A stretch of 64,000 bases of DNA from a virus (taxonomy: Duplodnaviria > Heunggongvirae > Uroviricota > Caudoviricetes). The position numbers and the translations under genes are program-made. The stretch lies in IMG/VR virus record IMGVR_UViG_3300009008_000002; one strand, given 5' to 3'. The stretch's first letter is position 1; each line of letters begins with the position of its first letter. Shown piece after piece: positions 13,484-64,000 of this stretch. Under the pieces are notes generated by a model. The model ran no database searches. It saw nothing but the letters and a program-made list of their open reading frames with translations, and had not been told where the DNA came from.

Positions 13484-13496
13484 GGCATCCTAGTAG

Positions 13497-36530: not shown

Positions 36531-37046
36531 TTAAATACCTAAAATTAAATCAGAGGGTGAATCACAATGATATACTGTAGCCTGTTCAGCAAAAGTTGCC
36601 ATAGTGTCATAAGCATCTCCAATGCCATAAAACACGAATTTAGTAGGAACATCTAATCTCTCCTTGAATCTCATGCCCTTCACAACGCCATATTTATTGT
36701 CGGACTCGTACCTATCCGTCACTACCATGATTACCCTGTCATAATCATACGAATCTTCTCCAGCCAAAACAAAGTAAGTTTGCTTAATAGCCTGCCCCAA
36801 GTGAAACTCTGAGAACTTTAACCGCATCATTTGTGCGATAGTTTGGCTTTTGTATCGAGGAACATCTAATTCGTCTTCCCGAAAAACATACACCCTGTCA
36901 TCATGGTGAAGACCCGCTATAAAATGAGAAAACTTTGTTTTGAGTTCATTTAAAAAAGGCGGTCTATTTATATCAAAAATCACACCTATTAAGCTATTTT
37001 GCATTTTTTCTCCTGTGTTTCTGGTGATTGTAAATCTTGCACACAT
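36531..37046 (-). CDS. hypothetical protein (171 aa)
   Basis: ORF; 5' end overlapped by the homing endonuclease gene. Confidence 0.35.
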   Translation of the reverse strand: MCARFTITRNTGEKMQNSLIGVIFDINRPPFLNELKTKFSHFIAGLHHDDRVYVFREDELDVPRYKSQTIAQMMRLKFSEFHLGQAIKQTYFVLAGEDSYDYDRVIMVVTDRYESDNKYGVVKGMRFKERLDVPTKFVFYGIGDAYDTMATFAEQATVYHCDSPSDLILGI

Positions 37047-38744: not shown

Positions 38745-38807
38745 ACAAAAAAAATTCCTGCTAACTAACTTATTTTAAGTGAGTAACAATATTCAGGAGT
38801 CGAATAA

Positions 38808-39722: not shown

Positions 39723-39723
39723 T

Positions 39724-40785: not shown

Positions 40786-40801
40786 TTTTATTATATACAG
40801 T

Positions 40802-41464
40802 ATGAAACTGGTTGCATTCTATAATAAATCATATGAGCCATTAAAAAAACGATTTCTCAAGTCCCTCCTTGATGACTTTGAGCTAGATATAGATTTCATT
40901 CCAATAAAAGCAAACGAAAACACGCCAGGAGGAGGTCGTTCAATATGGAAAGCCAGAACAAAATGGACAGCAGACAAAATCCAAAAATACAAAAATGAAA
41001 TAGTATTATTCTGTGATTTGGATATTCAATTTTTCCAGCCAATCAAAGACAATATCCTAGCCTTATTGAATGACAATGATATACTATTTCAAAGAGCCAA
41101 ACCCAATAGAAAACCAATTAATATTGGAGTTATGGTAGTCAAATGCAACAAAAAAACTGAAACTTTGTGGAGGTTAGCGAGCAATATTTCACACTATTAT
41201 AAAATTCAAGACGAAGATATAATAAACACCCTATTAAGCTCTCAAGTAACCAATCCACTTCAAATAAAATATGATTTCCTACCATTAACCTATGCTATCA
41301 CTAATTACATAAATAATTCTACTATTGTTGACTTGATGTTACACCATGAAACATCTACTAGATTTATAGAAAGCAAACTAGAAGTTATGTCCAAAATAAA
41401 AAAAAGATGGGAGAAGGGAATGAGAGAAAAGGAGAGGAAAGTCTCCCGACCGTGCTATTTATAA
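40802..41464 (+). CDS. hypothetical protein, possible nucleotide-sugar transferase-like
   Basis: ORF; FCDLDIQFF resembles GT-A DxD context (weak). Confidence 0.35.
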   Translation: MKLVAFYNKSYEPLKKRFLKSLLDDFELDIDFIPIKANENTPGGGRSIWKARTKWTADKIQKYKNEIVLFCDLDIQFFQPIKDNILALLNDNDILFQRAKPNRKPINIGVMVVKCNKKTETLWRLASNISHYYKIQDEDIINTLLSSQVTNPLQIKYDFLPLTYAITNYINNSTIVDLMLHHETSTRFIESKLEVMSKIKKRWEKGMREKERKVSRPCYL

Positions 41465-42255
41465 ACATTAGCATTTGATACACGATGCACTTTTGGGCGA
41501 GCACTCTTTGGGTTTTCATGTGTAGAATAATCAGAATAATCGAAATCCCCTAAATAATCTGCCTCAATATTGAAATATTCTAAAAAAACCAATTGATTAG
41601 TTATAATTGCTTCCAGATCAAAAGATGAACCCACTCTGCCACTTTGCTTGCTAATCCTCTCATCGTGACAATGGTGCTTATAATATTGAGGACAACAGCC
41701 TATCATCGTAGCTTTTTGAATACCACAAAACCACATAAAATGAATCAATGTAGTAATGCTGCCTGTATGTGCAAAAAGTGATTTTTGCTTGATGATTTCA
41801 TTTTTATCTAAACACCAATTTGGAAACTTTTTTATATCCATAGATTTATTTTTGTACCAATCATCTGGAGTAGAACCAAAAGTGGGAACATAATATAATC
41901 GTTTGACTTCTGGTTTTATGTCTTTTATGGATTTTAACCAAACTGTTTCTGACCATGCTCTCTCAAAATCTAAAAATTTATCAGGATTTCTAAAATAAAC
42001 AAGTGGACAAAGATACAAGGATTTAGAAACTAAACCACAAGCTGGATAGGGAGGGTGATGGGTTACAAGAAAGGATTCATTAACATATTTCTCAAATCTT
42101 ACTGCATCATTTACTAAAAATACAGGACAAGAAAAATCGGATAAATCCCTATAATCAAAAAGTGTAGGGCCAGATGCTACAACTACTGCATTTTTTCCTT
42201 TGAAACAGTCTTTATACTGACTCAACACAGCTACATTAGAGTAATGTTGCAACAT
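41455..42255 (-). CDS. hypothetical protein (266 aa)
   Basis: ORF. Confidence 0.35.
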   Translation of the reverse strand: MLQHYSNVAVLSQYKDCFKGKNAVVVASGPTLFDYRDLSDFSCPVFLVNDAVRFEKYVNESFLVTHHPPYPACGLVSKSLYLCPLVYFRNPDKFLDFERAWSETVWLKSIKDIKPEVKRLYYVPTFGSTPDDWYKNKSMDIKKFPNWCLDKNEIIKQKSLFAHTGSITTLIHFMWFCGIQKATMIGCCPQYYKHHCHDERISKQSGRVGSSFDLEAIITNQLVFLEYFNIEADYLGDFDYSDYSTHENPKSARPKVHRVSNANVYK

Positions 42256-42949
42256 ACCCGTATCTCTTCCGCAAGGCCAGAAACTTCTCTTTCACCTCAC
42301 CATCGGGAATTTCATCTACAGTGAAGTCTTTTTCCCTCTTGCGCATAGTGTTTGTCTTTTTATTGCGAAATGTTATGTCCTGTTTTGGAATATCCAAGAA
42401 TTCAAAAAAGTCATCTTTAAATTCGTCTTCTACCCGCTTGAAATAATAAGGACGATCCTTACAAGCGTCTTCTATTTTTGTATTCCAAATAGTCCAAAAA
42501 CAACAGGCCCTTTCAATAGGGTTTTCATACATGTTTAATTCTGGAACTTGTGCCCACATCCACTCTTCCCACTTTCCATCCTTGTTGAACTTGTTATCTT
42601 CCAATAACTGAAAATAATGCAGGTCTTTCACAAAAGAACTTACGACAGACAACGGCTCCCGCACTACATGGATAACTGGGATACTTTCAATGATTTCATG
42701 CCTCAAATATGGAACCGCCATATAACTGGAATCTGCCACTATGTTTTCTAATTCCAACCACCCTTGGTTATCAGCCACCTTGCTTATCGTAAGGTCTACA
42801 AAACCGTAAGCCCTACCAATGACTTCTTTCTCTTTGTCTTGATTGAAGACGCTTTCGTGACCACATTGAATGCCTAAACTCGTTAAAATACGAGCCATAT
42901 AAACAGTGCCACTTCTGCCAGTTCCAGTTACAATAAATTTGAGTCGCAT
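42236..42949 (-). CDS. sulfotransferase-like P-loop protein
   Basis: N-terminal FIVTGTGRSGTVYM PAPS-binding-like loop; paralog of 44066..44695. Confidence 0.5.
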   Translation of the reverse strand: MRLKFIVTGTGRSGTVYMARILTSLGIQCGHESVFNQDKEKEVIGRAYGFVDLTISKVADNQGWLELENIVADSSYMAVPYLRHEIIESIPVIHVVREPLSVVSSFVKDLHYFQLLEDNKFNKDGKWEEWMWAQVPELNMYENPIERACCFWTIWNTKIEDACKDRPYYFKRVEDEFKDDFFEFLDIPKQDITFRNKKTNTMRKREKDFTVDEIPDGEVKEKFLALRKRYGYVATLL

Positions 42950-42962
42950 ACTTTATTAAAGT

Positions 42963-44069
42963 ATGTTCAAGAAAAAATATGATGTGTTAGTTTGTGGTGC
43001 AGGTCTGTATGGCAGCACTTTCGCTAGAACGGCAGCAGAAGCAGGGCAGAAGGTTCTATTAGTTGAGAAGAACCCATATGTATCAGGGCACACCTTCACA
43101 AAAACAATCGAAGGAATTCCTGTGCATGTCTACGGCCCCCACTACTTTCACACTAATAGTAAAAAAATATGGGACTGGGTGACTCAATTTGGCGAATTCA
43201 ACACATATCAAGCCAAAGTAAAAGCCATGCACCAGGGAAACATCTACTCGCTCCCATTTAATATGATGACTTTTTATCAGATGTGGGGATGTGTGACGCC
43301 AGGGGAAGCAAGACAAAAAATCAAAGAGCAACAAGTTAAAATAGAATCACCCCGAACCCTTGAAGAATTTGCCTTATCTGAAATTGGCAGAGACCTTTAT
43401 AATGTTTTTGTATATGGTTATTCTAAAAAACAATGGGGCAGAGAGCCTAAGAACTTGCCCGCCTCAATAATTAGAAGAATACCTGTCAGATACACATATA
43501 ACGACAACTACCATAGAGCGCGACATGCGGGCGTCCCAATAAGGGGCTACACACATTTAGTAGAAAACATCATAGATCACCCCAACATAGAGCTTCAATT
43601 AAACACCGACTTCTTCGATGTCCCCAAATGGCAACGACTTGCAAAGAAACTGGTCTATTCTGGTCCTGTTGATCAATTGTTTGATTATCAATATGGGAAA
43701 TTAGAATACCGAAGTTTAGAATTTAAGCACGTTGTAGCAGACAGCGAAGATTTTCAAGGCGCAGGCCAAGTGAACTACACCGAAGATGGTGTCCCATATA
43801 CGAGAATATCAGAACACAAACACTTCTATCCTGAAGCTAAATTTGAAAAATCCGTCATCAGTTTTGAATATCCCAAAATATGGGAAGAAGGCATGGAAAG
43901 GTTCTACCCTGTTCCTATCGCAAAAAACCTTGAAACTTGCTATAAATATTCCAAATTAGTAGCTAATGAAAATGATTTAATTGTTGGAGGTCGATTGGGA
44001 ACCTACAAATATCTTGACATGGATATGGTAATAGGCATGGCACTTAAAGATGCCTCTCAAGACAAATGA
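42963..44069 (+). CDS. glf: UDP-galactopyranose mutase
   Basis: N-terminal FAD motif YDVLVCGAGLYGSTFA…GQKVLLVEKNPYVSGHTFT and C-terminal GRLGTYKYLDMDMVIGMAL are diagnostic of Glf. Confidence 0.85.
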   Translation: MFKKKYDVLVCGAGLYGSTFARTAAEAGQKVLLVEKNPYVSGHTFTKTIEGIPVHVYGPHYFHTNSKKIWDWVTQFGEFNTYQAKVKAMHQGNIYSLPFNMMTFYQMWGCVTPGEARQKIKEQQVKIESPRTLEEFALSEIGRDLYNVFVYGYSKKQWGREPKNLPASIIRRIPVRYTYNDNYHRARHAGVPIRGYTHLVENIIDHPNIELQLNTDFFDVPKWQRLAKKLVYSGPVDQLFDYQYGKLEYRSLEFKHVVADSEDFQGAGQVNYTEDGVPYTRISEHKHFYPEAKFEKSVISFEYPKIWEEGMERFYPVPIAKNLETCYKYSKLVANENDLIVGGRLGTYKYLDMDMVIGMALKDASQDK

Positions 44070-44695
44070 AAAGCCATGTGATAATATCAGGCACAGGACG
44101 GACTGGGACTTCTTTTTTGGTAAACCTTCTAACAAGATTAGGGTTAGACACAGGTTTTAATAATGTAAACGGATACCACATAAATTGTAGAGCAGGATTT
44201 GAAAAAGAATTCAAAGAAAAGAATCTCCCCTATATTATAAAAAACCCATATTTCTGCGATTATGCAGAAGACATAATCAGAGATAAATCAATGATTATAG
44301 ATCATGTCTACATCCCCATGAGAGACATAGATGCAGCAGTGGCTAGTAGACAATTTGTAGTAGATAGCTCACAAGATACTCATGGGCATCTCCCGCCCTC
44401 AAAAATACCGGGCGGTTTGTGGGGAACGGATAAAAAAAATGAACAGAAAAACATTCTACTCAACCATTTTTACAAACTACTCTTAGCACTATCGAAAGAA
44501 TCAATACCTGTTACAATCCTAAATTACCCAAAATTGGTGAAAGATGTTAAATATCTCTACAGCAAACTGCAATTTCTAGTGAAAGAGATTGAATATCGAA
44601 AATTTAAAACGGTATTTGAAGAAACCGTAAACCCAAACTGGGTACATTCTTTCAATGAAAAAGATGTCTGTTCTTCCACAAAAATTTATCTTTAA
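44066..44695 (+). CDS. sulfotransferase-like P-loop protein
   Basis: VIISGTGRTGTSFLVNLL N-terminal loop; paralog of 42236..42949. Confidence 0.5.
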   Translation: MKSHVIISGTGRTGTSFLVNLLTRLGLDTGFNNVNGYHINCRAGFEKEFKEKNLPYIIKNPYFCDYAEDIIRDKSMIIDHVYIPMRDIDAAVASRQFVVDSSQDTHGHLPPSKIPGGLWGTDKKNEQKNILLNHFYKLLLALSKESIPVTILNYPKLVKDVKYLYSKLQFLVKEIEYRKFKTVFEETVNPNWVHSFNEKDVCSSTKIYL

Positions 44696-44703
44696 TCCGA
44701 GAG

Positions 44704-45315
44704 ATGCCAATGTTAATTCCAAATAGAGATAAGGTGGGCATCTTAAACAAGTTAATATCCAAATTTAACTACACCAACTACTTAGAAATAGGCATCGATC
44801 AAGCACAATGTATAAGCAACATCACAGCTTCCAAAAAGACAGGCGTTGATCCTTCTCCTGATGTTTTAAAGATGAAACTCAAAAACACCGAATTCATCTG
44901 CGTAACTTCGGATTGTTTTTTCAGTCTCTATCAAGATAAATACGATTTGATTTTTATAGATGGATGCCACTATTACCAACAAGTCTATAGAGATATTGTT
45001 AATTCCATCAATCAACTAAATGCAAATGGCACTATTGTTGTCCACGATTGCAACCCCAAAACAGAGATGGCACAACGAGTTCCTAGACAAAGCAGATATT
45101 GGTCTGGTGATGTGTGGAAAGCAATCGTCAGATTAAGACAAGAACTGACTGATTATGAAATCTTCGTAATAGATGTTGATTGTGGAATAGGCATAATAAG
45201 ACAAGGCAAAAATGAACCATTAATTTTAACGAAACCCATTAATGACTTAACATGGATTGACCTCCATCAGAATAGAACATCCTACTTAAACATCAAACCA
45301 ATTACAGAACTGTAG
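44704..45315 (+). CDS. class I SAM-dependent methyltransferase (Methyltransf_24-like)
   Basis: LIFIDGCHYYQQVYRD and NGTIVVHDC resemble 21970..22581 (IIFDDGSHQVKHQ / PGGVYIIEDL). Confidence 0.5.
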   Translation: MPMLIPNRDKVGILNKLISKFNYTNYLEIGIDQAQCISNITASKKTGVDPSPDVLKMKLKNTEFICVTSDCFFSLYQDKYDLIFIDGCHYYQQVYRDIVNSINQLNANGTIVVHDCNPKTEMAQRVPRQSRYWSGDVWKAIVRLRQELTDYEIFVIDVDCGIGIIRQGKNEPLILTKPINDLTWIDLHQNRTSYLNIKPITEL

Positions 45316-45322
45316 GGGGGAA

Positions 45323-46072
45323 ATGAATAAATTATTAGTAGCATCAGTATATTGCGATTACAGTCACAATGAAGTGTGGAGTCAATTGCAAAAAAAGTTC
45401 CTAACTGAAACAACAGAAGTGGGATATGACTACGCTGTGTACTTAAATAGAGCAAATTCTGCTTTCTTCAAAAAAGACATCATAATAGGCTCCACAAAAA
45501 AAAGAAACAAACGAAGCATCTCACACGATCATGCATCAGGATTAAAACACATACTAGAATATTTTAAAAACTCCCATTACGATTATTGTCTCATTCTTGA
45601 TAGTGATTGTTTTCCTTTTGCCCCCAATTGGTTCTCTAGCATTATAAAAAAAATGGGAGAGTTTGATTTAGCAGCTATGTTAAGACTTGAAGACCTGAGT
45701 GTATACCCACATCCTGCTGCTATGTTCTTTAACCGAAACGCTCTCAATTTTATCTCATTTGAACCATCATTAGTAATGAATTTCTTGAATATTGATTGGC
45801 TAGATGTGGGTGGCCTAATTCCATTAAACAAAACATATCCTTTAATAAGAACTAACAAATACAACCCTCATCCCGTTTTTGCTGGAATCTACGCTGATAC
45901 CTTCTATCATCACGGTTGTGGTTCAAGAAAACCGCACTTTAAATCCCAAGAACACTATGAATACACTAATGAAGACAATGAGAGATTGGAAAGAATAATT
46001 TTCCAATCTCTAATGAGAAATCCCGAAAAATTCATCAAGAGACTAATGAGCAGCAACATCGTTTATATGTAA
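45323..46072 (+). CDS. hypothetical protein (249 aa)
   Basis: ORF. Confidence 0.4.
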   Translation: MNKLLVASVYCDYSHNEVWSQLQKKFLTETTEVGYDYAVYLNRANSAFFKKDIIIGSTKKRNKRSISHDHASGLKHILEYFKNSHYDYCLILDSDCFPFAPNWFSSIIKKMGEFDLAAMLRLEDLSVYPHPAAMFFNRNALNFISFEPSLVMNFLNIDWLDVGGLIPLNKTYPLIRTNKYNPHPVFAGIYADTFYHHGCGSRKPHFKSQEHYEYTNEDNERLERIIFQSLMRNPEKFIKRLMSSNIVYM

Positions 46073-46702
46073 AGCCATCAAATAATCTTCTTGATAATCT
46101 ATGTCTATTGATTCCGGCCATTTTATCTCAAAAAAAATAGGATTGTTGCCATAATAATAGTGGTTTTTAATCATATTCTCTCTAGGTTGAATGAATATAC
46201 CACCATCTTGTTCAAAAATCGGTTCCAACTCAGAGGCAACAGTGTGATTTATCAAAGGTTTGAAATTAAGAGGCTCTTGTCGATACCAAAAATGCCCATG
46301 AACCACTCTGACAGAGAAGAGTGAATCATATTCAGGCGAACTTGCCAACAAATCTATAGCACGATCATAAGTTGAACTTTTGATTAAAGGATTGGTACAA
46401 TGTGCCCATATTATTAAATCAGTTTCAACTGATTCCACTAAATTAGCAATCATTTTGTTTGCAAGTGTATCAGCACGACAATACTTTGCTGGTATTTCTA
46501 AAACCTCTGCTCCAGCAGACTGTGACAACGATAATATTTCATCTGAATCCGATCCAACTACGATTCTATCTATGTTTTTGCAACAACTCAAACATGCTAT
46601 CTTGTGTTCTATCAAAGAACCAGAATCACCAAAAGGCAAGAAGTTCTTATTTTTTAAACGAACACTGTTTTTTTTAGATGGAATAATTGCAGTTCTTTCC
46701 AT
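46043..46702 (-). CDS. acylneuraminate (nonulosonic acid) cytidylyltransferase, NeuA/CMP-sugar synthetase-like
   Basis: AIIPSKKNSVRLKNKNF N-terminal signature of CMP-NeuAc/CMP-Kdo synthetases. Start trimmed to MERTAIIP; its ATG abuts the stop of the upstream synthase gene. Confidence 0.65.
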   Translation of the reverse strand: MERTAIIPSKKNSVRLKNKNFLPFGDSGSLIEHKIACLSCCKNIDRIVVGSDSDEILSLSQSAGAEVLEIPAKYCRADTLANKMIANLVESVETDLIIWAHCTNPLIKSSTYDRAIDLLASSPEYDSLFSVRVVHGHFWYRQEPLNFKPLINHTVASELEPIFEQDGGIFIQPRENMIKNHYYYGNNPIFFEIKWPESIDIDYQEDYLMALHINDVAAH

Positions 46703-46703
46703 T

Positions 46704-47549
46704 TTACTTACCATAAATTCGATGTAAAAGAAATTTTTCCTCCTTTGTATCCATCCCAAATTTAGCATCAAAAGCACAAGAAGGTAAATTTGGCGTTGGA
46801 TTATCAATTTTAATGAGTTTAAATTCCTCCGGCTCAAGACTGCACGATATGTGATGGGCGTAAGAACTCCTGCTGATACAAAAATGTCGCTCAACAAAAT
46901 CTGCTCCCATATTTATTGCTCCATAGGTTCCATTTAATCCACATTCATGCCCCGAATAACCTATTTTAATTCGTTTACTGCCGAAATATTTCTTCAACAC
47001 CCTAATGTTACCCAATCGCAGTTCTTCGTCAGGACAAGGATAAATAGCTACACAGTGATTTATAATGATTTTATTTTGTTGGGCAAACAAATCAAGCACA
47101 TTTTCAATATGCGATAAATCCAAACCAGCCAAAGAAACTACCAGAGTTTTTTCTTTCGGAATCAGCGATTTCACAGCACTCAAAAATTGAGCATTACTTG
47201 CATTAATAGATGAAATCTTATACATTGGCAAGTCAAAATCTAACATAAATTCAAAAGATGCAATATCCTGTGCTGTTACAAACCATTTAGCGCCAAGCTC
47301 TTGACACCTTTGATCAAATTGCAAAAATTCATCTTTGCTAAACTCAAACATACTTCTGTATTCTCTGTATGTCTTGCCATATGGGCTTTTATATGCAGAA
47401 TTTAACTCCTCATTGCTGTAAAAACCTTCAATGTCTTTCTTTTGTAATTTAATGTAATCCGCACCAGATGACACTGCTGCTTCCAACATCCTTAATGATA
47501 ACTTAAAATTACCCAAATGATTGGTTGTAAATTCCGCTACTGTTTTCAT
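46704..47549 (-). CDS. N-acetylneuraminate (nonulosonic acid) synthase NeuB-like
   Basis: NHLGNFKLSLRMLEAAVSSGADYIKLQ, KISS, HCVAIYPCP, IGYSGHE are conserved NeuB/PseI/LegI family motifs. Confidence 0.8.
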   Translation of the reverse strand: MKTVAEFTTNHLGNFKLSLRMLEAAVSSGADYIKLQKKDIEGFYSNEELNSAYKSPYGKTYREYRSMFEFSKDEFLQFDQRCQELGAKWFVTAQDIASFEFMLDFDLPMYKISSINASNAQFLSAVKSLIPKEKTLVVSLAGLDLSHIENVLDLFAQQNKIIINHCVAIYPCPDEELRLGNIRVLKKYFGSKRIKIGYSGHECGLNGTYGAINMGADFVERHFCISRSSYAHHISCSLEPEEFKLIKIDNPTPNLPSCAFDAKFGMDTKEEKFLLHRIYGK

Positions 47550-47609
47550 TTTAAATCTCTCAACAGACAGACCACCCCTACTATATAAAATACTAGGAAA
47601 ATCAAGAAA

Positions 47610-48464
47610 ATGATCAAAAATTACCTATTTAACACACATCCCACCATCATCCATAGCCCAGGCAATAATGGTTTTTTCAAGGATATTGTGCTAGAATTTC
47701 GCAACACTCGACAAAGAAACAAAAAAACCCCCGTTGAGGACTGTGAAGTTTTCACTTGGAACAATAGAGGTCGTCCAGGCGTATTGGAAAAAAGTTTAGA
47801 AAAACTAGGGTGCCCATATACTGTAATGGGAGGGAAAATAGCAAAATCACTGTGGAAAAATATATTCAAAGTCTATCTTACTGTCCGATTCTTAAAAACC
47901 GTCAAAACAAAGTATGTAATGGGAATAGATTCATTTGATGCTATCTTCACGAAACACCCCAACCATGCACTTGAGTTGTTTAAAGAATTCAAAAAACCAC
48001 TGATATTCAACGCAACAACAGCGCCTAACCTCACCATAACTAAACAAATGAGAGATTGGGAAAAGACACTATACCCCAATCAATTAAATGGATTTCTTAA
48101 TGCGGGAGCTTGGATTGCAGAAACACAATACGCCAGAGAGTTTTTTCAAAAAGTCTTAGAAAAAAGTCGCCACAGAAAAAAAACCATCAACAAACACGCA
48201 AAAAAAGGCACGCTCATACAGCCACCTAACCGACACCCTAACTTTTTGAAGAACCCACTTTTAAAAAATAGATACATACAATTCCTGAGCCAAAGCGAAC
48301 AGTTAATTGTTAAGTGGGTTTTTAAAGAAACATATCCAACAGTAAACATAGACACCAAACAAAAAATAATGGCCTGTCTAAATATGCCTGAATATTACCC
48401 AGTAAAACTGCGGCAAGATTTTGGACTTAAAATATTAAAACAAAACAAGATTCGCTTTTTTTAG
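47610..48464 (+). CDS. hypothetical protein (284 aa)
   Basis: ORF. Confidence 0.4.
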   Translation: MIKNYLFNTHPTIIHSPGNNGFFKDIVLEFRNTRQRNKKTPVEDCEVFTWNNRGRPGVLEKSLEKLGCPYTVMGGKIAKSLWKNIFKVYLTVRFLKTVKTKYVMGIDSFDAIFTKHPNHALELFKEFKKPLIFNATTAPNLTITKQMRDWEKTLYPNQLNGFLNAGAWIAETQYAREFFQKVLEKSRHRKKTINKHAKKGTLIQPPNRHPNFLKNPLLKNRYIQFLSQSEQLIVKWVFKETYPTVNIDTKQKIMACLNMPEYYPVKLRQDFGLKILKQNKIRFF

Positions 48465-49621
48465 AGATAAAGTTTATTCCGCTTGCACACAATGATAACA
48501 TTCCTTCTATTGCAAAAATATCCAGGTATATATTGCATGTCTTTAACATCAATTAAGGAACAAATTTCATCAATTCCCATAGCAACATGAGGAAAATCCT
48601 TTTTGTCTAATGAATCTTTATTGTGTTCCATAACAAGCAGATGATCGCAACACTTGCGAGCCTTTTTATAAACAGCCTGAAAATATTCTACCGGCACTCT
48701 GTTGCCTAATAAAATATGCAATGATAAACACTTAAATGTCTTGCGCGATTTTAAGAAGTCACGGTAGTATATGCCTTCATACGACTTGAATGGCCCGCGA
48801 GATTGTCTTTTACAAGCCCATCTTGAAGAATGATGTATTTCAGCAACCTCGTCTCCAGCAAGTTGATGCAATGCATTTGTCGCATATTTATGAGGGCTAC
48901 CGTCTTTTGCTTTATTGTCAGGAGTGCTTTCCCAAATACACCAATTAGTTCGTTTTTGTATTGGTTTTGATTTGAAGTTTCCTCTAATATTTGAGATCCA
49001 CACTACAACCATACTATTTTTAAATTCTCTACTTGAACAAAAACTGCCTATATCGTCACAAACATATGTGATCCTATCCTGCATTTTATCAAGATTCGAG
49101 CGTAGATTCTCTTGTGATCTAAGGAATCCATAATCATAACCAGCCCATACTTTGGTTCTCGTTTTATTTTGATTTGGCAATATATCTAACTCAAGATCGC
49201 TGTGGAAAATAGGAGGGGGTGGTGTCCATAATGTTCCATCAGAATGTTTCTTAATTTCGATTCCCAACTTACACCCTTCAATGTTGCAATCATCCCATAC
49301 GTTCTCTTCTAAAAGCAAATCATTATCTTCGTGAAAACGTTTTGCAAACTTAAACCCTGTCATATCTTCGATGATTTTAAGACGATCATTTGGGTTATCA
49401 ACAATTGCTTTTAGGGTGCGTTTATGATGCTCTAATTGAGCTTCGGACACATCAACAAAATACATATGTTTTATTTTATCTGGACTTATATCATCTAATA
49501 AATATGACAACATATGAAACGATGCATGATTGCCAACAGCTATTACCACAACCGAGCTATCTTTTGATATTGATGGAATTTCAGGGCAGAACGCACACCA
49601 ATCATTAGAAAAGACATACAT
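48461..49621 (-). CDS. hypothetical protein (386 aa)
   Basis: ORF. Confidence 0.4.
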   Translation of the reverse strand: MYVFSNDWCAFCPEIPSISKDSSVVVIAVGNHASFHMLSYLLDDISPDKIKHMYFVDVSEAQLEHHKRTLKAIVDNPNDRLKIIEDMTGFKFAKRFHEDNDLLLEENVWDDCNIEGCKLGIEIKKHSDGTLWTPPPPIFHSDLELDILPNQNKTRTKVWAGYDYGFLRSQENLRSNLDKMQDRITYVCDDIGSFCSSREFKNSMVVVWISNIRGNFKSKPIQKRTNWCIWESTPDNKAKDGSPHKYATNALHQLAGDEVAEIHHSSRWACKRQSRGPFKSYEGIYYRDFLKSRKTFKCLSLHILLGNRVPVEYFQAVYKKARKCCDHLLVMEHNKDSLDKKDFPHVAMGIDEICSLIDVKDMQYIPGYFCNRRNVIIVCKRNKLYL

Positions 49622-49747
49622 ACCAAACTCGCTTAAAGATAAAGTTTTTCTGACTCATTAGGGACAAACAAGAAATGGTCCCTTCTCCCTAAAGGATATA
49701 CACTCGACACCCTCCTTCCACCAGCATTAATTATGTAGTCTCAACCA

Positions 49748-50545
49748 TCAGTAAATCTTCCTCTTTTTCTCTATAGCCTTTTTCCATGAAGGTGACACCA
49801 CTTGTTTAGTTACAACATCTCTAGGATACTTAAAATACCCACAATACATACAGCATTTTGCAAGCCTATCTCTTGCTTCATTATCTGTCGCATCCAATAA
49901 CTGCTTAAGTGTAGTCACGCCCGTCTTAAGATCAAATACCCTATCCACATGATAAGACACTTCACATGAATAATACAAACCATCAGCACCTAATGCGCAC
50001 CCTCCGCATTTGGTTACTCGTGAACAAAGTTGTCGAAACACTTTTTTATCAATATCTTTATATTCTGGCGTGTCAATTGGAGACACATTGAAACTTTCAA
50101 ATATGTTCCAAATTTTATTTGGGATAGAATTTTGATTTTGTAATTTCAACCATTTAGGCAATCCCTTTGTAAATTCTGAATTGGTTCCATTAGTTAGCAG
50201 TTTAAATTGACAAACTGGTATTCTTAAGCCCGACTTTTTAATAGATGATCTATTAAAAAGTCTATATTTATCCAACAAAAAAACAATCTCTTTGAATTGA
50301 GGGTGTAGTGTAGGTTCTCCCCCTGTTAATTTGATTGTATCCCAACAACATTTGAGTGATATTGCATCTTCAATAAATTTCTCAACATGCTTGAGGCTTA
50401 TGTGGGTAAAATCAGGAGCTATTCCGACACATGCCTGACAATTAGGACATCTAAGATTACACATATTTGTCACATTTATTTCAAATATATGTCTGTTAAT
50501 GTGCCAAACCACATTGGTTTTATATTCTTCGTTTCCATGAAACAT
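49748..50545 (-). CDS. radical SAM enzyme
   Basis: CNLRCPNC (CxxxCxxC) cluster near the N-terminus plus GGEP-like TGGEPTL. Confidence 0.6.
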   Translation of the reverse strand: MFHGNEEYKTNVVWHINRHIFEINVTNMCNLRCPNCQACVGIAPDFTHISLKHVEKFIEDAISLKCCWDTIKLTGGEPTLHPQFKEIVFLLDKYRLFNRSSIKKSGLRIPVCQFKLLTNGTNSEFTKGLPKWLKLQNQNSIPNKIWNIFESFNVSPIDTPEYKDIDKKVFRQLCSRVTKCGGCALGADGLYYSCEVSYHVDRVFDLKTGVTTLKQLLDATDNEARDRLAKCCMYCGYFKYPRDVVTKQVVSPSWKKAIEKKRKIY

Positions 50546-51249
50546 TACATAATCCTTTCCTTTTTGCTAAAATTCGTCAATTTAGTGGACTTTTGTTTAA
50601 AGTGAGTGTTAGCAGCACATCTGCCGCACGCACCCAGAGGATCATTCATCAATCGCTCTTTGATTTCCAACAAACCATCGACATAATTCAAAGTCAATTC
50701 ATTGCTCAATGAATATGGGCAATCTAAATATAAAGACAACCCGTGAGCACAACAATAAATCCTTCTGTTGTAATACCACCACTTGTCATATTCACAAACA
50801 GCCGGGGTGGTCCCTTGTATCGGAGATTCGGGGATTGGATAAAACTTTTCTCTAGGCACAATCCTCACCTTATCTCCGAACTGTTGCTTCAGTTGTTTAA
50901 CTTCCTTTGAATTGGCTCGATATGCAGAAATTCTAATTTCGTTAAAACAATCTGCCACTTCATTATTCAAAGCATCTATATTCAGTGCATTGGTAAACAT
51001 CAACATTCCACAACATGTGTCTGATTCCCTTAATAATTTAACCCCTTCTTGTAAATTAGACCACAGCAAAGGCTCGCCACCACTTATCGTATACTTAAAT
51101 TTATAGCCAGATTTATGTGTTATTTCAATAAACTCCTCTAGATCAGGAATGGATATTTCATAATCACAACTTTCCATAAGTGGTCGCATAATGCAATTAG
51201 CACAATGTAGGTTGCACTTTGAAGTGCTAAACAACGAGAGTTCTTTCAT
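50545..51249 (-). CDS. radical SAM enzyme
   Basis: CNLHCANC (CxxxCxxC) and ISGGEPLL glycine-rich SAM motif. Confidence 0.6.
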   Translation of the reverse strand: MKELSLFSTSKCNLHCANCIMRPLMESCDYEISIPDLEEFIEITHKSGYKFKYTISGGEPLLWSNLQEGVKLLRESDTCCGMLMFTNALNIDALNNEVADCFNEIRISAYRANSKEVKQLKQQFGDKVRIVPREKFYPIPESPIQGTTPAVCEYDKWWYYNRRIYCCAHGLSLYLDCPYSLSNELTLNYVDGLLEIKERLMNDPLGACGRCAANTHFKQKSTKLTNFSKKERIM

Positions 51250-52073
51250 TTAAAAACCTTTACACGATCTGTAATTTCGTATGGGGGAAATAAATCCTTA
51301 TCACATCTGCCAATGACACCTTCATTTATCATACTGTGCTTCCTTGTTTTGTAAATCTCCGACTTATACCCTATGTGTTGACACACGCCTCGCTTCAACA
51401 CACCAACTGCCACGTTCGCCTTCCGACAATTATCAACCCAAAAATCATCCATATCTCTAGTTTGAACGATGTTGTTTTCAAAAAGAACAGGCTTCTTTTC
51501 ACACAACATTTTGCTAATCATCAACAATACGCCGCCAACATTCCCTTGAGCAATTTCATCCATATGGGTATTTACTCCCCGAAATTTCACCCTTCCAAAA
51601 AAATGCCGGAATCCTGATATAATGCCAAACTCACCATCCTGACTCGCTTGACACATCTTGTGATACCACCCATCTTTAAAAACAGCATCATCTTGCACCT
51701 TTATTACATGAGAACATGAACATTCTAAAAAAGCCAACCTGACCACATCCGTAAAATGCTTAACCCCCTTGATAGTTTTGTGGATCACCACATTAGCCTT
51801 GCCACTAATTCCCTTGACAGATTTGTAATTTGGCAACACACCCATCTGCTTCACCCAAACTTGAGAAACAGGAAAGGTCCAGTCATCTATTTCAATCTCA
51901 TTAGATGTAGTTAAATATTCCACCATCTTAGCGTTCTGTGTGCCATCATTGCTAATGTAAACTGGCACGCTAGATGGAACCGTTGCGCTTAGGCTTTTCA
52001 TAGTAATATCCAAAAGCCTAATCCTATCCTTACAAGTCACAACTATAGGAATTATTGGATGATGACGTATCAA
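51246..52073 (-). CDS. putative GT-A-fold glycosyltransferase
   Basis: PIVVTCKDR…YISNDGT resembles GT2 N-terminal region (weak). Confidence 0.4.
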   Translation of the reverse strand: MIRHHPIIPIVVTCKDRIRLLDITMKSLSATVPSSVPVYISNDGTQNAKMVEYLTTSNEIEIDDWTFPVSQVWVKQMGVLPNYKSVKGISGKANVVIHKTIKGVKHFTDVVRLAFLECSCSHVIKVQDDAVFKDGWYHKMCQASQDGEFGIISGFRHFFGRVKFRGVNTHMDEIAQGNVGGVLLMISKMLCEKKPVLFENNIVQTRDMDDFWVDNCRKANVAVGVLKRGVCQHIGYKSEIYKTRKHSMINEGVIGRCDKDLFPPYEITDRVKVFK

Positions 52074-52687
52074 GAAACAACCTCGCTTATAAAAAGAAAC
52101 TTACTTTTTCTAGGGAAGGCACTCATTGCTGCCTCAAAAATATCCGGCAACCCATCCTTGTTTTTCTGCTCTTGTACATGACTGTGAAATGTATGAAATT
52201 CAGAATTTTCATACCAAACTGATCTCATTTTCTCTTGTCCCAAATTAAAATGGTAAATCCTATCAGCATTCACATCATAATAACCCTTCATGGCTGAAAT
52301 CAGAAACCCTTTCTTATTCAAAACATTTGCGGTTATTTGATCCATCATCCACCACGGGGACTTGAATCCGCGATAAAAATACCGCTCATAAGGAAATTCA
52401 ACTTCCGTCTTATTAAACCATTCTTTTCTGTCTCTATGATTGCTGCCATGATAGTGCATTTCTATCCAGTCATATTTTTCCTGAATCATGGCAAGCCACT
52501 GCTCGCTACACCGAAGCGGAATAGTAAACATGGTTATCTTTAAATGAGGGTAGTGATCTTTGAGATAGAACAACTTGTTCCACAACTGAGGATTCATAAT
52601 ATCCTCACAGAAATCATCAAGATCAAATACAACTGGTTTACTAGAAAAAAGCATAAATATATATATGAAAATCATATGGGCAATCAC
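52070..52687 (-). CDS. hypothetical protein (205 aa)
   Basis: ORF. Confidence 0.35.
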   Translation of the reverse strand: MIAHMIFIYIFMLFSSKPVVFDLDDFCEDIMNPQLWNKLFYLKDHYPHLKITMFTIPLRCSEQWLAMIQEKYDWIEMHYHGSNHRDRKEWFNKTEVEFPYERYFYRGFKSPWWMMDQITANVLNKKGFLISAMKGYYDVNADRIYHFNLGQEKMRSVWYENSEFHTFHSHVQEQKNKDGLPDIFEAAMSAFPRKSKFLFISEVVS

Positions 52688-53459
52688 AACCTACAATCGC
52701 CTCAAATATTTAAAACAATGCATAGAATCCTGGGAAAGAACACATAACCCAAAACACCAATGGACACTCATAGCTTGTGACGATGGCTCAAATGATGGGA
52801 CTAAAAAATATCTAAAATCACATGGATTCAAAATATTTAAGCACAACCGGCGAGGGGTTCACCATCAAACAAACACAATTATAAAACACTGCTCTAAAAT
52901 AGACTTTGACATAACCTTCAAGACAGATGACGACATAACATTTAAACAGAAAACATGGGACGATAGGTATATTGAAGCCATTACAGAGACCGGATGTGAT
53001 CATCTGAATTTCCACGATTTAAAATGGAAACGAAAGAAACACAAACGAGCTACAATAAGTCACCCATCTGCGTTGATAGAAAACAAAGCGGTGAATAGTG
53101 ACACACAAGGAGCTTGTTGGACATTCACACCCCAAGTTATTGAAAAAGTAGGGTATTTTGATTTGCAAAAATTTGGGGCGTGTGGATTCGGGCATCGTGA
53201 CTACACATTTAGATGCTGTAGGGCCGGTTTTAATGTGTTGGATTCCATATATGACATCAAAGACAGCAATAAATATCTGGGATTAATCAAAAAGGATTAC
53301 CAATCGGCATCTGAGGATTATTTTAAAATATGGAATGAGAATTTCAAAACATGGAATATACGCGAAAAAAAAGCATTACTTCGCACTAATAGAGTGTATG
53401 TTCCATACAACACAATTCATTACAATATTCTAGGACAGCCATTATACAGACTTTTCTGA
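52665..53459 (+). CDS. family 2 glycosyltransferase
   Basis: IIWAITTYNR…LIACDDGSNDGT (canonical GT2 DDGSxDGT). Confidence 0.6.
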   Translation: MKIIWAITTYNRLKYLKQCIESWERTHNPKHQWTLIACDDGSNDGTKKYLKSHGFKIFKHNRRGVHHQTNTIIKHCSKIDFDITFKTDDDITFKQKTWDDRYIEAITETGCDHLNFHDLKWKRKKHKRATISHPSALIENKAVNSDTQGACWTFTPQVIEKVGYFDLQKFGACGFGHRDYTFRCCRAGFNVLDSIYDIKDSNKYLGLIKKDYQSASEDYFKIWNENFKTWNIREKKALLRTNRVYVPYNTIHYNILGQPLYRLF

Positions 53460-53936
53460 AGCCTTATCCTTATCAGATACAACAATAGGATCAACAGGCC
53501 ACTCAATACCGAAACTGGTATAGTGGTAATTTTTATCTTGCCCTGGCTTCCAAATATCCCCTTGTAGATACAACAAAATGGTATCATCAACATTAGAATA
53601 AAACCCATGCGCACAATTTGATGGTATGAAAAGATGCTCTGCCTCTTCACCTGATAACCATGTGCCAAACCATTGTTTGTAAGTTTTAGAATCTTCTCTT
53701 AAGTCCACGACCACATCATAAAGACGACCCTTCAAACACTGAACAAATTTAGAATAAGGCGAACAATGCAATCCCCTAATAACCCCTTTTCCAGAAACCG
53801 AATAACTGGTTTGTTTAAAATCACAATGATAATCACCATCTTGTATGTAAATGGTCTGGAAATAACCTCTATCGTCCGCAAATCTATTCCCAGAAAATAA
53901 AAAACAACCCTCAAATAATGTCTTCTTAAGTTCCAT
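53442..53936 (-). CDS. dTDP-4-dehydrorhamnose 3,5-epimerase (RmlC)-like cupin sugar epimerase; start trimmed to MELKK
   Basis: FADDRGYF…GVIRGLH…KFVQCLKGRLYDVVVDLR…IPSNCAHGF matches RmlC family conserved blocks. Confidence 0.7.
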   Translation of the reverse strand: MELKKTLFEGCFLFSGNRFADDRGYFQTIYIQDGDYHCDFKQTSYSVSGKGVIRGLHCSPYSKFVQCLKGRLYDVVVDLREDSKTYKQWFGTWLSGEEAEHLFIPSNCAHGFYSNVDDTILLYLQGDIWKPGQDKNYHYTSFGIEWPVDPIVVSDKDKASEKSV

Positions 53937-53970
53937 TCTTTCTCTCCTTTCCAACACTATATAAAATACT

Positions 53971-54162
53971 ATGGAAAAAATCAAGACGTTCAAAGAATGG
54001 CTAGAACTAAAAGAGGGCCTGTGGTTAAATGATAGCAATTCCGAACCTAATGGCACGGCTGTCAATGATGACAGAAAAAGCGGCTGGATGAAAGCCAAAG
54101 CTGGAGGAGGTATGGCGGCGGCTGGAGGATTCGGAAACATGGCTCTTGGAGGTCGTAGGTGA
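53971..54162 (+). CDS. hypothetical Gly-rich small protein
   Basis: ORF; GTGA overlap with the next ORF. Confidence 0.3.
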   Translation: MEKIKTFKEWLELKEGLWLNDSNSEPNGTAVNDDRKSGWMKAKAGGGMAAAGGFGNMALGGRR

Positions 54163-61962: not shown

Positions 61963-62616
61963 ATGAAGAAAAAATGTTCAAAATGCCAGGAAAACAAAGA
62001 CTCGGAAGCCTTCACAAAAAGATCATCATCCAAAGATGGATTACACCCGTGGTGTAGAAGTTGTGTCCAAGATTACAATAAAAACCATCACAAGAGAAAC
62101 AAAAAATCTGCTAATGTAAGAAATAAAAAATGGCGAGAAAACAATGTAGAATACAACAAAGAAAGAAATAGAAAATGGATGGTAGAAAATGCAGAATACC
62201 GTCAAGAGTATAAAAAACGGCACAGAAAAGAAAATAGAGAAAAAATAAATTCATACAAAAGACAAAGAAGACTAGAGTTGTCCCAAGACCCACTATTCCG
62301 ACTTGAGACCAACCTTAGAAAAAGACTTTATAGAGCTATTAAAAAAATAGAGGGAAACGCTCTTGAAAACAAAAGCATCTCCCTCGAAAGCAGCAATTTA
62401 CTTGGTTGTTCTATTCAGGATTTACAAAAACACCTTGAAAAGCAATTCACCAAAGAAATGAGTTGGAACAATTATGGACAATGGCACGTAGACCATATTC
62501 GTCCAGTTTCCAGTTTTGATCTAACTGACAAATCTCAAGTTCAAGAATGTTTTCATTATGCAAATTTACAACCTTTATGGGCCAAAGATAACTACAAGAA
62601 GGGTTCATCATATTAA
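61963..62616 (+). CDS. HNH endonuclease with N-terminal Cys4 zinc finger and basic repeat region
   Basis: C-terminal GQWHVDHIRPVS…NLQPLWAKDN (HNH: H-N-H with DH and N..N). N-terminal CSKC…CRSC. Repeated NKKWRENNVEYNKERNRKW-like basic units. Confidence 0.75.
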   Translation: MKKKCSKCQENKDSEAFTKRSSSKDGLHPWCRSCVQDYNKNHHKRNKKSANVRNKKWRENNVEYNKERNRKWMVENAEYRQEYKKRHRKENREKINSYKRQRRLELSQDPLFRLETNLRKRLYRAIKKIEGNALENKSISLESSNLLGCSIQDLQKHLEKQFTKEMSWNNYGQWHVDHIRPVSSFDLTDKSQVQECFHYANLQPLWAKDNYKKGSSY

Positions 62617-63377
62617 TAAGCCCAACTTGCCTTTCTCAATCACATCCCTTACCTTCGTAGTTTTCTTGCCTGTGCGGTGATCTACCGCTCGACTCTGGAT
62701 GTAATTGTAAGTGCGAATCTTGTCTGAACCGCTACCATCACCTATTTGCTCTTTACGACGCCGATCATAATCCTTCTGATCTTGTTTCGATTTCATTTTT
62801 GAAACCTTTACAGAAAGAATACGATGCGCCTCACGTCGGTTTTGGTGTTGATTGCGACCATCAATCACAACTTGCATGTTGGTTGGTCGATGAATCATCC
62901 TCACACAAGATTCTGTACGATTGCGATGTTGTCCTCCAGGCCCTTGACCTACTGCTGTTTTAACTTCTAATTCGCTTTCTGGCAATAATTTAACCTCACG
63001 CTTTGAAGGCATAGGCAAAACTGCCACCATAACAAAAGAAGTCTGGCGGCGTCCTTTACTCTCCGTAGGTGGGACTCGCTGAATGCAATGCACACCAGCC
63101 TCTTGGCTAAACAGAGTCGCAGCTTTTTGACCAGAAATGCGGGATGTTACTTCACCCTTGACTGAATCAAGGATTTCAACTTTTAGGCCATTAGATTTGG
63201 CAAACTTAACATAAGCTGCAAAAAGATCATGGACGAATAATTTAGAATCTTCGCCCCCTTTGCCAGCATGGACCTCTAGGATGATCTCATTAGACTGGCT
63301 AAAGACACCCCCATCCCTTCAACGTGTTCTGTGTGTTTTGCGCATTGTTAAAGATACCTCCGATTTCTTTTACCCAT
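62608..63377 (-). CDS. class I peptide chain release factor homolog (RF1-like PxT/GGQ) lacking domain 1; frame assembled via two putative +1 frameshifts (at 63351..63348 and 63302..63299)
   Basis: Contiguous frame 63301..62608 encodes LEVHAGKGGEDSKLF…IQRVPPTESKGRRQTS…GQGPGGQHRN…DKIRTYNY…DHRTGK (RF domains 2-4). No in-frame start codon exists upstream of domain 2 in that frame. An upstream SD+ATG mini-ORF (63377) and two CUU-stop-C shift sites connect the frames. Confidence 0.55.
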
Positions 63378-63570
63378 TTTCTTGTCCTCCATATTGATAA
63401 AGTAATTCTTCGACGGTAATGGGTTTACCGTCTCGGTCAAACACTAAAACATTGTCTGGTTGTCTAGTATCTATCGCCACACTCAGTCTTTTGCACCTGT
63501 TGTTGCGCAGCCAACTCCAATCTTCGTCACGGAGTTTGATCAGATACTCAATCAGGCTATCAACGTCCAT
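63370..63570 (-). CDS. hypothetical protein (66 aa)
   Basis: ORF; 3' end overlaps the SD/mini-ORF of the RF gene. Confidence 0.3.
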   Translation of the reverse strand: MDVDSLIEYLIKLRDEDWSWLRNNRCKRLSVAIDTRQPDNVLVFDRDGKPITVEELLYQYGGQENG

Positions 63571-63594
63571 TGTGGCATTCTACCACAAATTGGC

Positions 63595-63981
63595 TCATTG
63601 TGAAGCCTCTGGCGGCATATCTGGCGGTAATTCCTGTGGCAAAGTCTCTCGTTGCGGCTTAGCTGGGGGCTGAACCCCAATTTTAGGAAGCACGGTGAAA
63701 ATCACAACAGACCGTTTCGAGTGTGGATTATTAAAATGAAGCGGTGACGGTTCCCACTGGAAGAACCACGAATTTCGCTCATAATTATCACGAGGAATGT
63801 AAACTTCGTAGCCTGCTGGGCCTTTTTTACACCACATCACTCGATATTCGTCATCTCCCACGGGCGTCTCTATTCTACGAGAAACATCTAGCCACAGTTT
63901 TCTATCCAAATCAACGCTGAGGGCTGTTTTAGCAATCCAACAACCTTCGCCTTCTCTCAAATCCACGATCCTTTTTGGCAT
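63595..63981 (-). CDS. hypothetical protein (128 aa)
   Basis: ORF. Confidence 0.35.
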   Translation of the reverse strand: MPKRIVDLREGEGCWIAKTALSVDLDRKLWLDVSRRIETPVGDDEYRVMWCKKGPAGYEVYIPRDNYERNSWFFQWEPSPLHFNNPHSKRSVVIFTVLPKIGVQPPAKPQRETLPQELPPDMPPEASQ

Positions 63982-64000
63982 AAATCGAGCTTCCCCAGCT

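Follow-up and report, generated by a model that had tools for sequence, protein, structure and literature searches.

The +1 frameshift programmed at a CUU codon that directly precedes a stop codon is among the classic examples of translational autoregulation. In bacteria, the device had previously been tied to a single gene, prfB, and to a single stop codon, UGA. The prfB site of Escherichia coli (AGG GGG UAU CUU UGA C) lies at about codon 26, inside domain 1 of release factor 2 (RF2), and its UGA is read only by the product of the gene itself. A Shine-Dalgarno-like (SD-like) element 3 nucleotides (nt) upstream stimulates the frameshift (summarised in PMC12421855). The present report concerns a release factor gene on the minus strand of a 64,000-nt stretch of viral DNA (Caudoviricetes; IMG/VR record IMGVR_UViG_3300009008_000002), called the window hereafter. 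There, two prfB-like cassettes, each made up of an SD-like run, a 3-nt spacer, CUU, a stop codon and C, stand one after the other ahead of an RF1-type coding region, the body, that has no start codon in its own frame. An earlier note, made from the sequence alone, had read this arrangement as two programmed frameshifts in series. The window and 45 unique cassette-bearing relatives place the device on an RF1-type factor, with all three stop codons, and in doubled form at 11 loci. These comparisons support the view that the prfB device has moved to a phage-borne RF1-type factor devoid of domain 1, where it would be freed from UGA and sometimes doubled.

Comparison with known systems

Autoregulatory frameshifting has been shown for prfB and not for prfA. 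In a survey of 12,753 genomes, no convincing prfA case was found and TAG was never present in prfB motifs (PMC12421855, 2025). A UAG/RF1 counterpart was stated to be unknown in a 2016 review (PMC5009743), and all CUU-stop entries in RECODE correspond to prfB (PMC10885494). The claim of the earlier note that RF1-type genes are not known to use programmed frameshifting agrees with PMC12421855 and PMC5009743, but the sites themselves have a viral precedent. Indeed, Mimivirus R726 and Megavirus mg280 combine readthrough with a +1 frameshift at CUU UAG C and CUU UAA C, respectively, as shown in E. coli (PMC3521657). Nothing beyond this case was found in open-access papers and bioRxiv on phage release-factor frameshifting.

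The window locus shares with bacterial prfB the P-site CUU, a stop codon with C at position +4, the SD-like element with its 3-nt spacer, the UAU codon before CUU (in cassette 1), a short leader open reading frame (ORF) and a product that is a class-I release factor. In contrast, its product is of RF1 type, phage-borne and without domain 1, its frameshift site lies right before domain 2, its stops are UAA and UAG (any of the three in the family), and two cassettes may occur in series. With the Mimivirus and Megavirus genes it has in common a virus-encoded termination factor that needs two recoding events, and the same CUU UAG C and CUU UAA C sequences. However, those genes belong to the eukaryotic/archaeal eRF1 family and to amoeba viruses, whereas the window factor is of the bacterial RF1 type; they also rely on readthrough plus one frameshift, with no SD-like stimulator described, and not on two frameshifts.

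Huge phages encode RF1 and RF2 (PMC7162821) and recoded phages carry release factors (bioRxiv 10.1101/2021.08.26.457843); neither source mentions frameshifting or a missing domain 1. One curated huge-phage genome, LR756511.1, carries a double-cassette member of the present family. Unlike recoded phages, the window uses the standard code, and a role of the gene as a code-switch module is not indicated. Finally, PrfH (RF-H) also lacks domain 1 while keeping the decoding domain and the GGQ motif, and the window also encodes RtcB. The window body is nevertheless far closer to RF1 (expectation value, E, against sequences of the PDB 1.7e-45 vs. 3.6e-09 for PrfH), and RtcB is about 35 kb away, with no operon. 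An identification as PrfH was rejected: the TIGR03072 score is 83.6 bits against a cut-off of 166.65, and there is no adjacent rtcB.

Organization of the locus

The minus strand of 62300..64000 was inspected and translated in all three frames. The features that make up the gene are the following (coordinates of the window).

63385..63390, minus strand: Shine-Dalgarno (SD) sequence GGAGGA, 7 nt 5' of the leader ATG 63377..63375
63348..63377, minus strand: leader ORF in frame 0, ATG + 8 codons + TAA (MGKRNRRYL), read from the sequence
63347..63361, minus strand: cassette 1, GGAGG TAT CTT TAA C (SD-like run, 3-nt spacer, CUU, UAA, C), with CTT TAA at 63353..63348
63299..63349, minus strand: middle frame (+1), 16 sense codons NNAQNTQNTLKGWGCL, then TAG, from the translation
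63298..63312, minus strand: cassette 2, GGGGG TGT CTT TAG C, with CTT TAG at 63304..63299
62608..63300, minus strand: body, +2 relative to the leader, a 230-amino-acid (aa) RF1-type class-I release factor with domains 2-4 only, ending TGA TGA
63064..63072, minus strand: PPT tripeptide at the PxT "anticodon" position of RF1, from the translation; nearly invariant in the family
62929..62937, minus strand: GGQ peptidyl-tRNA hydrolysis motif, from the translation; invariant in the family alignment

The leader reads ATG GGT AAA AGA AAT CGG AGG TAT CTT TAA C, with its stop at 63350..63348, and the middle frame continues as AAC AAT GCG CAA AAC ACA CAG AAC ACG TTG AAG GGA TGG GGG TGT CTT TAG C, with its stop TAG at 63301..63299. 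In each cassette, CTT directly precedes the stop codon and is followed by an open +1 frame, an SD-like element stands 3 nt 5' of CTT, and C comes after the stop. The minus-strand letters bear out what the earlier note had described, namely GGAGGA-7nt-ATG, the leader MGKRNRRYL and both SD-CUU-stop-C cassettes; the middle frame, given there as 17 codons, actually has 16 sense codons. It contains no ATG, and its sole alternative start, TTG 63322, has no SD sequence. From AGC 63300, the body frame runs without interruption as far as TGA 62610..62608, and its translation is SQSNEIILEVHAGKGG... (= SQSNEIILEVHAGKGGEDSKLF...). As had been claimed, it has no start of its own: three-frame translation places its nearest 5' stop at TGA 63321..63319, and its first ATG, GTG or TTG is GTG 63093, far inside the protein.

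The SD-ATG layout of the leader is also found in leaders of related loci, and homologous K/R-rich leaders ending in RRYL or RRLL occur at four of them (L191, L192, L111 and L114; individual loci are designated by such numbers where they have to be told apart). The L-[KN]-x-x-x-C-L motif of the middle frame is likewise common to close relatives. A product made through two slips is predicted to have 9 + 16 + 230 = 255 residues. Since a prfB-type slip inserts no phenylalanine, its junctions should be RRYL-NNAQ and GWGCL-SQSN rather than the L-F-N and L-F-S junctions first proposed, and the predicted tryptic junction peptides are YLNNAQNTQNTLK and GWGCLSQSNEIILEVHAGK.

The pattern GGRGGNNNCTTTRR has exactly two matches in the 64 kb, on both strands, and both are the cassettes. 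With 0.21 matches expected in the window, two anywhere were reached in 1 of 100 shuffles, which agrees with the argument that two cassettes are unlikely to arise by chance. At this locus, another JGI contig (L189, sample 3300007510) is identical in sequence. An Rfam scan of the window gave a tRNA-Met as sole match and no known RNA element at the locus.

That the locus encodes a 255-aa, domain-1-less RF1-type class-I factor made via two prfB-type +1 frameshifts is the reading that we favor, with a probability of roughly 0.8. On the comparative evidence that follows, both frameshifts are, with a like degree of confidence, programmed and required for synthesis of the factor.

The cassette in the family of short release factors

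A BLASTN search of the locus against GenBank phages and a single-sequence scan of IMG/VR with the locus gave no match, and relatives in these collections were reached only through an alignment query. A protein search brought up a large family of release factors, its members about 222-240 aa long and started by gene callers at a TTG, GTG or ATG right at an "EVHAG" motif. Loci were gathered from IMG/VR, GTDB genomes, JGI metagenomes, single contig look-ups and GenBank phages. One script was applied to them in the region 5' of the conserved glycine of E-[IV]-x-x-G-x-GG (G13 of the body), and duplicates were removed before counting.

This census identified 46 unique short release factor loci, including the window, that have no usable start in the body frame and carry CTT plus a stop codon exactly one base out of frame. 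The cassette has the form [TGT/TGG/TAT] CTT T[AG|GA|AA] and lies 4-20 codons before the conserved glycine; cassette 2 of the window is 12 codons before that of HAG-K-GG. In contrast, the cassette is absent from all of the short relatives that have a plain in-frame ATG (0/67). The association is highly significant (45/50 start-less loci vs. 0/64 direct-ATG loci, Fisher p = 2e-26); the test predates the last four GenBank loci, L194 and three with a direct ATG, which all fit the pattern. As a positive control, the script recovers bacterial prfB sites (CGGGAC TCT CTT TGA C), about 107 codons upstream. A further 40 of the collected loci correspond to full-length RF1 or RF2. The comparison of homologues, which the earlier note had named as a check, thus gives a cassette kept in start-less loci and a two-cassette layout that recurs at 11 loci in at least five lineages; the proposal of two prfB-style cassettes ahead of an RF1-type body is supported by these doubles and by the 46 cassette loci, as against none with a plain ATG.

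At every cassette locus, the zero frame is a short K/R-rich leader that begins with an ATG having its own SD sequence (e.g. aaggagaaaaacc-ATG). The cassette also leaves a mark in conceptual translations. What looks like a protein motif where the body begins, [V/G]-F-[S/D/E/N], results from out-of-frame reading of the cassette: its phenylalanine is always encoded by TTT, the preceding codon always ends in C, and the residues that follow are limited to those whose codons complete TAG, TGA or TAA. A cause at the protein level was rejected, as the plain-ATG relatives do not have the motif and the residues after the phenylalanine are limited by the stop codons.

Some further features of the family were recorded. 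The codon before CTT is TGT, TGG or TGC in 37 of 42 proximal cassettes (63305..63307 in the window), TCT or AGT in the bacterial prfB controls, and TAT in the distal cassettes of the window subclade. The gene's own stop codon is TAA in 34/42 cassette-bearing genes and TGA in 50/63 genes of the direct-ATG clade; that of the window is TGA TGA. Three curated genomes of 636-735 kb (L195, L196 and L197; LR756504.1, LR756501.1 and LR756502.1) encode domain-1-less factors with a plain ATG before domain 2, which indicates that the minimal factor occurs widely among huge phages whether or not frameshifting is involved.

Cassettes in series

Eleven loci have two unambiguous cassettes. Their distal and proximal stop codons are as follows.

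Window: TAA + TAG
L111, L114, L084, L191 and L192: TAG + TAG
L085: TAG + TGA
L018 and L194: TAA + TGA
L014 and L027: TGA + TGA

A twelfth double is likely at L007/L006. L194 is of particular value as it lies in LR756511.1, a manually curated complete phage genome of 595 kb, and decodes as MKKKVKNQVCL / NSAANPATTSPLDRL / DKANEIILEIQFG. An SD-like run (GGAGG, GGGGG, GGGAG or GAGG) stands 3 nt before the distal CTT in all eight doubles scored by the script and in L191 and L192, and the distal cassette of L194 has a weaker AGGTG in this role. C follows the distal stop in 11/11 doubles. The leader ATG lies 6-15 codons 5' of the distal cassette, and the two cassettes are separated by 12-18 codons (16 in the window). 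None of the 11 middle frames contains an ATG. Moreover, in six of the eight doubles checked, the middle frame has no ATG, GTG or TTG after cassette 1, the window and L114 having one TTG each, without SD. When +1 decoding was simulated at each CTT-stop, an uninterrupted protein running from the SD-ATG to the natural stop was obtained at 13/13 loci run, nine of them doubles; L027 and L194 were read from frame translations, outside this simulation.

In a rough neighbor-joining tree, doubles appear in at least five separate places. The window subclade contains the doubles window, L191, L192, L111 and L114 alongside loci with a single cassette, a plain ATG or a deleted cassette. The two loci closest to the window are L001 (87% identical) and L003 (77%). 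Window and L001 differ by a 7-nt indel, TATCTTT, located exactly at cassette 1. The sequence CGGAGG TAT CTT TA[AG] C is found again in L191, L192 and L111, which are 52-63% identical to the window, and L114 (46% identical) has CGGAGG TTA CTT TAG C. As the same distal cassette occurs in these distant relatives, the double is probably ancestral in the subclade, and L001 would have lost one cassette by a frame-restoring 7-nt deletion.

The release factor body

The body is an RF1-type factor made up of domains 2-4 without domain 1. Pfam matched PCRF only at profile positions 99-194 of 194, that is, its C-terminal half, plus RF-1. Among NCBIfam models, prfA ranked first (model positions 103-332 of 347), ahead of prfB (158 bits) and PrfH (84 bits), with scores below the prfA equivalog cut-offs (NF001859, 220.1 bits vs. 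400; TIGR00019, 213.2 vs. 423.25). RF1 was also the best match among PDB sequences, RF2 following at E of about 1e-30. An AlphaFold2 model of the body has a predicted local distance difference test (pLDDT) score of 88.7, and its Foldseek comparison with ribosome-bound RF1 gave a template modeling (TM) score of 0.90 on the query and 0.60 on full-length RF1. Hence the body does not have the full four-domain architecture of RF1, the N-terminal domain 1 being absent, and the 25 residues contributed by the leader and the middle frame cannot stand in for this domain of about 100 residues. A separately encoded domain 1 was sought in the upstream ORFs, which have no Pfam matches, and was rejected; the upstream genes also differ between the window and L001.

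The PPT tripeptide noted earlier was recovered in the translation. Together with the Q-R-V-P context, it suggests that the factor would act at UAA and UAG and not at UGA. At window positions 63040..63054 (GRRQTS), the histidine of the GR[I/R]HTS decoding element of RF1 and RF2 is replaced by glutamine, as it is in roughly one half of the family; this glutamine is preceded by arginine, as in RF2.

Over the 230 codons of the body, the ratio of non-synonymous to synonymous substitution rates (dN/dS) between the window and L001 is 0.036, the proportions of synonymous (pS) and non-synonymous (pN) differences being 0.72, near saturation, and 0.078, respectively. The body is thus under strong purifying selection, which excludes a pseudogene. 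Because synonymous sites are saturated, the TG[TC] CTT TAG CCA GTC shared by the window and L001 is meaningful. Finally, the window, L001 and L003 share the sequence S/N-Q-S-N-E-I-I-L, located 5' of the start called by gene callers, even though its codons differ synonymously (TCT/TCC, GAG/GAA, ATC/ATA/ATT, CTA/TTG), which shows that this stretch is translated.

Proposed mechanism

In the proposed mechanism, ribosomes would start at the SD-ATG 63377 and translate MGKRNRRYL. When CUU occupies the P site and the A site holds UAA-C, a weak terminator, the peptidyl-tRNA-Leu of cassette 1 would slip from CUU to UUU, helped by pairing of the GGAGG located 3 nt upstream with 16S rRNA. Sixteen codons further on, the same slip at GGGGG-UGU-CUU-UAG-C, again before a stop (UAG-C) that would be recognised poorly, would bring the ribosome into the frame of the factor. 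Termination and slippage would compete at each site, and the output would fall as termination activity at UAA and UAG rises. Both RF1 and RF2 would act at UAA; at UAG, only RF1-type factors would, and the product itself is presumably one of them. As the efficiencies of two serial sites multiply, a low basal level and a steeper response may be expected. We infer slippage itself, its stimulation by the SD-like runs and the sensing of release-factor activity from the sequences compared.

Stop codons of the cassettes

The earlier note held that the autoregulatory logic mirrors that of RF2 and UGA. In the window, the cassette stops are indeed UAA and UAG. Across the family, however, the stop of the proximal cassette is TAG at 25 loci, TGA at 20 and TAA at one, and the 20 UGA cassettes (of 46) precede the same PPT/GRRQTS decoding loop as the UAG cassettes. 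Strict self-feedback cannot therefore be the general logic; the mirror-image loop is not established, and self-feedback is only partly supported. No decoding-loop residues that separate the proteins of UAG cassettes from those of UGA cassettes were found, the QRVPPTESKGRRQTS of the window occurring in both groups, and near-identical proteins may differ in the cassette stop (TAG in L023, TAA in L024). The cassette stop follows the stop usage of neighboring genes: in the 6.7-kb flanks of L004-L116, 50% of the neighbors end with TGA and 12% with TAG at TGA-cassette loci, as compared to 26% and 25% at TAG-cassette loci (chi-square 12.4, p = 0.002, with no phylogenetic correction).

Two readings of these data are open: either what the cassettes sense is how well the infected cell terminates translation in general, and not the product alone, or the factor reads beyond UAA and UAG. 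The second is suggested by the tracking of neighbor stop usage along with UGA cassettes before an unchanged PPT loop, which would fit a broadened specificity. A more far-reaching and rather speculative idea, which we hold to be unlikely though worth stating, is that of a modular "termination sensor" of huge phages. A minimal factor, possibly of broadened or even omnipotent specificity, would be gated by zero, one or two CUU-stop cassettes on any stop codon, and tandem cassettes would act as an AND gate on two termination failures (here at UAA and at UAG). If so, cassette number and stop identity could be retuned quickly, as illustrated by TAG vs. TAA in near-identical proteins and by 7-nt indels, and the phage would take charge of termination once the release factors of its host are depleted or under attack.

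Alternative explanations

Besides the UGA cassettes with their unchanged decoding loop, several points weigh against the double frameshift proposed for the window. The evidence is comparative. An SD-like element accompanies only about one quarter of the proximal cassettes in the family, so that the part it would play at cassette 2 cannot be generalised. Among close relatives, three have a single cassette (L001, L109 and L193), L190 (68% identical) has none and starts at a plain ATG, and L003 has a deleted one. Lastly, a path to the body without any frameshift exists, as follows.

63319..63345, minus strand: body-frame ATG 63345 + 7 codons + TGA 63321..63319

Initiation at this ATG, possibly with the GGAGG of cassette 1 as an SD sequence 11 nt upstream, would give MRKTHRTR, and near-cognate decoding of the TGA would then lead into the body. 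The same ATG, short ORF and TGA in frame with the body are found in L001 and L003, but the layout is not general in the family. Five start-less relatives have no CTT-stop: four of them (L003, L019, L029 and L115) have an in-frame start, 3-11 codons and TGA right before the body, as UGA readthrough would require, and L025 has GTT TGA A where others have CTT-stop. These may be decayed copies or a readthrough variant. Also in line with readthrough, the body-frame stop is TGA at 31/42 cassette loci. However, TGA ends 27 of the 67 long ORFs of the window, where no sign of recoding was found, and 25/42 cassette loci have no in-frame ATG before the body-frame stop or have TAA or TAG there. In the near relatives, the TGA and the ATG are by-products of conserved leader codons (TTG AAG; AAY RAT GCG) read in another frame. 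Readthrough would, moreover, leave the conservation of the CTT-stop and of the SD-ATG leaders unexplained. The earlier note had disfavored it, and with these data we regard it as improbable.

A comparably low probability is given to a single frameshift, in which translation would begin at TTG 63322 (MKGWGCL) and use cassette 2 only, cassette 1 being a recent, functionless 7-nt insertion of TATCTTT. This TTG is available six codons before the stop of cassette 2, the closest relative L001 has one cassette, and the indel falls exactly at cassette 1 of the window. The TTG is nevertheless without SD ("aaacacacagaacacg"), whereas frame 0 has a strong SD-ATG. A recent insertion is also at odds with a distal cassette shared with L191, L192, L111 and L114, which are only 46-63% identical to the window, and six of the eight doubles checked offer no middle-frame start at all after cassette 1.

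Still less credible is a non-canonical start inside the body (ATC 63285/63282 or CTA 63279), with the upstream ORFs as unrelated small ORFs. Gene callers do begin the proteins P0001 and P0002 (of L001 and L003) at a TTG equivalent to the leucine of IIL-EV, and L190 begins as M-NEIILE with a plain SD-ATG. In the window, the corresponding codon is CTA and not TTG, with no SD nearby; the upstream S-Q-S-N-E-I-I is kept through synonymous changes, and the conservation of the cassettes would again be left unexplained. Finally, a reading frame broken twice within 50 nt near the 5' end could look like a decaying pseudogene or a homopolymer error, and L003 seems to have lost its cassette, but accidental indels have a negligible probability given the dN/dS of 0.036 with saturated synonymous sites, the identical sequence on a second contig, the perfect SD-NNN-CTT-stop-C form of both breaks and the recurrence of the layout in assemblies made independently, among them a complete phage genome that was curated manually.

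Implications

The family offers a natural allelic series (zero, one or two cassettes; UAA, UAG or UGA; with or without SD) in which the effects of stop identity, E-site codon and SD spacing on frameshift efficiency can be compared. It also provides a natural experiment on whether a response becomes sharper when sites stand in tandem. The family further points to an annotation problem: gene callers truncate such genes or start them at a spurious TTG or GTG, and the sole recorded version of the gene in the window is a fragment of 140 aa (P0008). A question raised by these factors is why huge phages need a minimal release factor of their own and what they sense with it.

Genomic context

The window uses the standard genetic code. 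Its 67 long non-overlapping ORFs end with TAA (27), TGA (27) or TAG (13), and long-ORF coverage is already complete under code 11. Recoding of a stop codon in the window or its relatives was therefore rejected, as coverage under code 11 is high and all three stops end genes. The sole confirmed tRNA is a tRNA-Met, hence no suppressor tRNA is present.

Several window proteins have strong PHROG matches. Encoded proteins include RtcB, a polynucleotide kinase/cpYpsA protein, ClpX-like and other AAA ATPases, ParB, a UvrD-type helicase, two SPFH proteins, a TIR protein and homing endonucleases, and there is a sugar-modification block of low guanine-plus-cytosine (GC) content. No structural phage genes were found in the window. 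With the relatives located on IMG/VR contigs of 50-570 kb, this gene content makes a huge phage, or else a large mobile element of similar kind, the most likely source.

Upstream of the leader, two further features were noted.

63577..63604, minus strand: promoter-like site TTCACA-16-TAGAAT with TG (consensus scan only, 10/12 matches; weak evidence)
63370..63570, minus strand: 66-aa ORF from the ORF list

The promoter-like site stands 5' of the 66-aa ORF and is a possible operon promoter. The ORF had no match in a Pfam scan; its TAA (63372..63370) overlaps the leader start (ATGGGTAA), which makes translational coupling of the two possible.

An RNA-repair set is formed by the RtcB ligase (26662..28104, minus strand), a polynucleotide-kinase-like AAA_33 + cpYpsA protein (28566..29576, minus strand) and the tRNA-Met (13496..13571, minus strand). 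RtcB is the usual partner of PrfH, the other domain-1-less factor; the distance of about 35 kb from the release factor gene was given above. At 34346..34435 (minus strand), ARAGORN called a 90-nt tRNA-Trp (CCA) with an oddly placed anticodon and a score below the Rfam tRNA gathering score; the call may be spurious, or the tRNA may be interrupted. The low-GC block (36000..54000; 0.35-0.40 vs. about 0.45 elsewhere) holds a UDP-galactopyranose mutase, methyltransferases and a LAGLIDADG homing endonuclease, and looks like a laterally acquired sugar-modification island. The 351-aa protein with a C-terminal TIR domain (10704..11759, minus strand; Pfam TIR_2, E 2.7e-22) has a phage-like context and could be a defense or counter-defense gene.

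A convergent ORF (61963..62616, plus strand) encodes a K/R-rich protein of 217 aa with an HNH-like "HVDHIRP" motif and no Pfam match. It overlaps the 3' end of the release factor gene by 9 nt and encloses a strong hairpin (62385..62350) that resembles a terminator for the minus strand.

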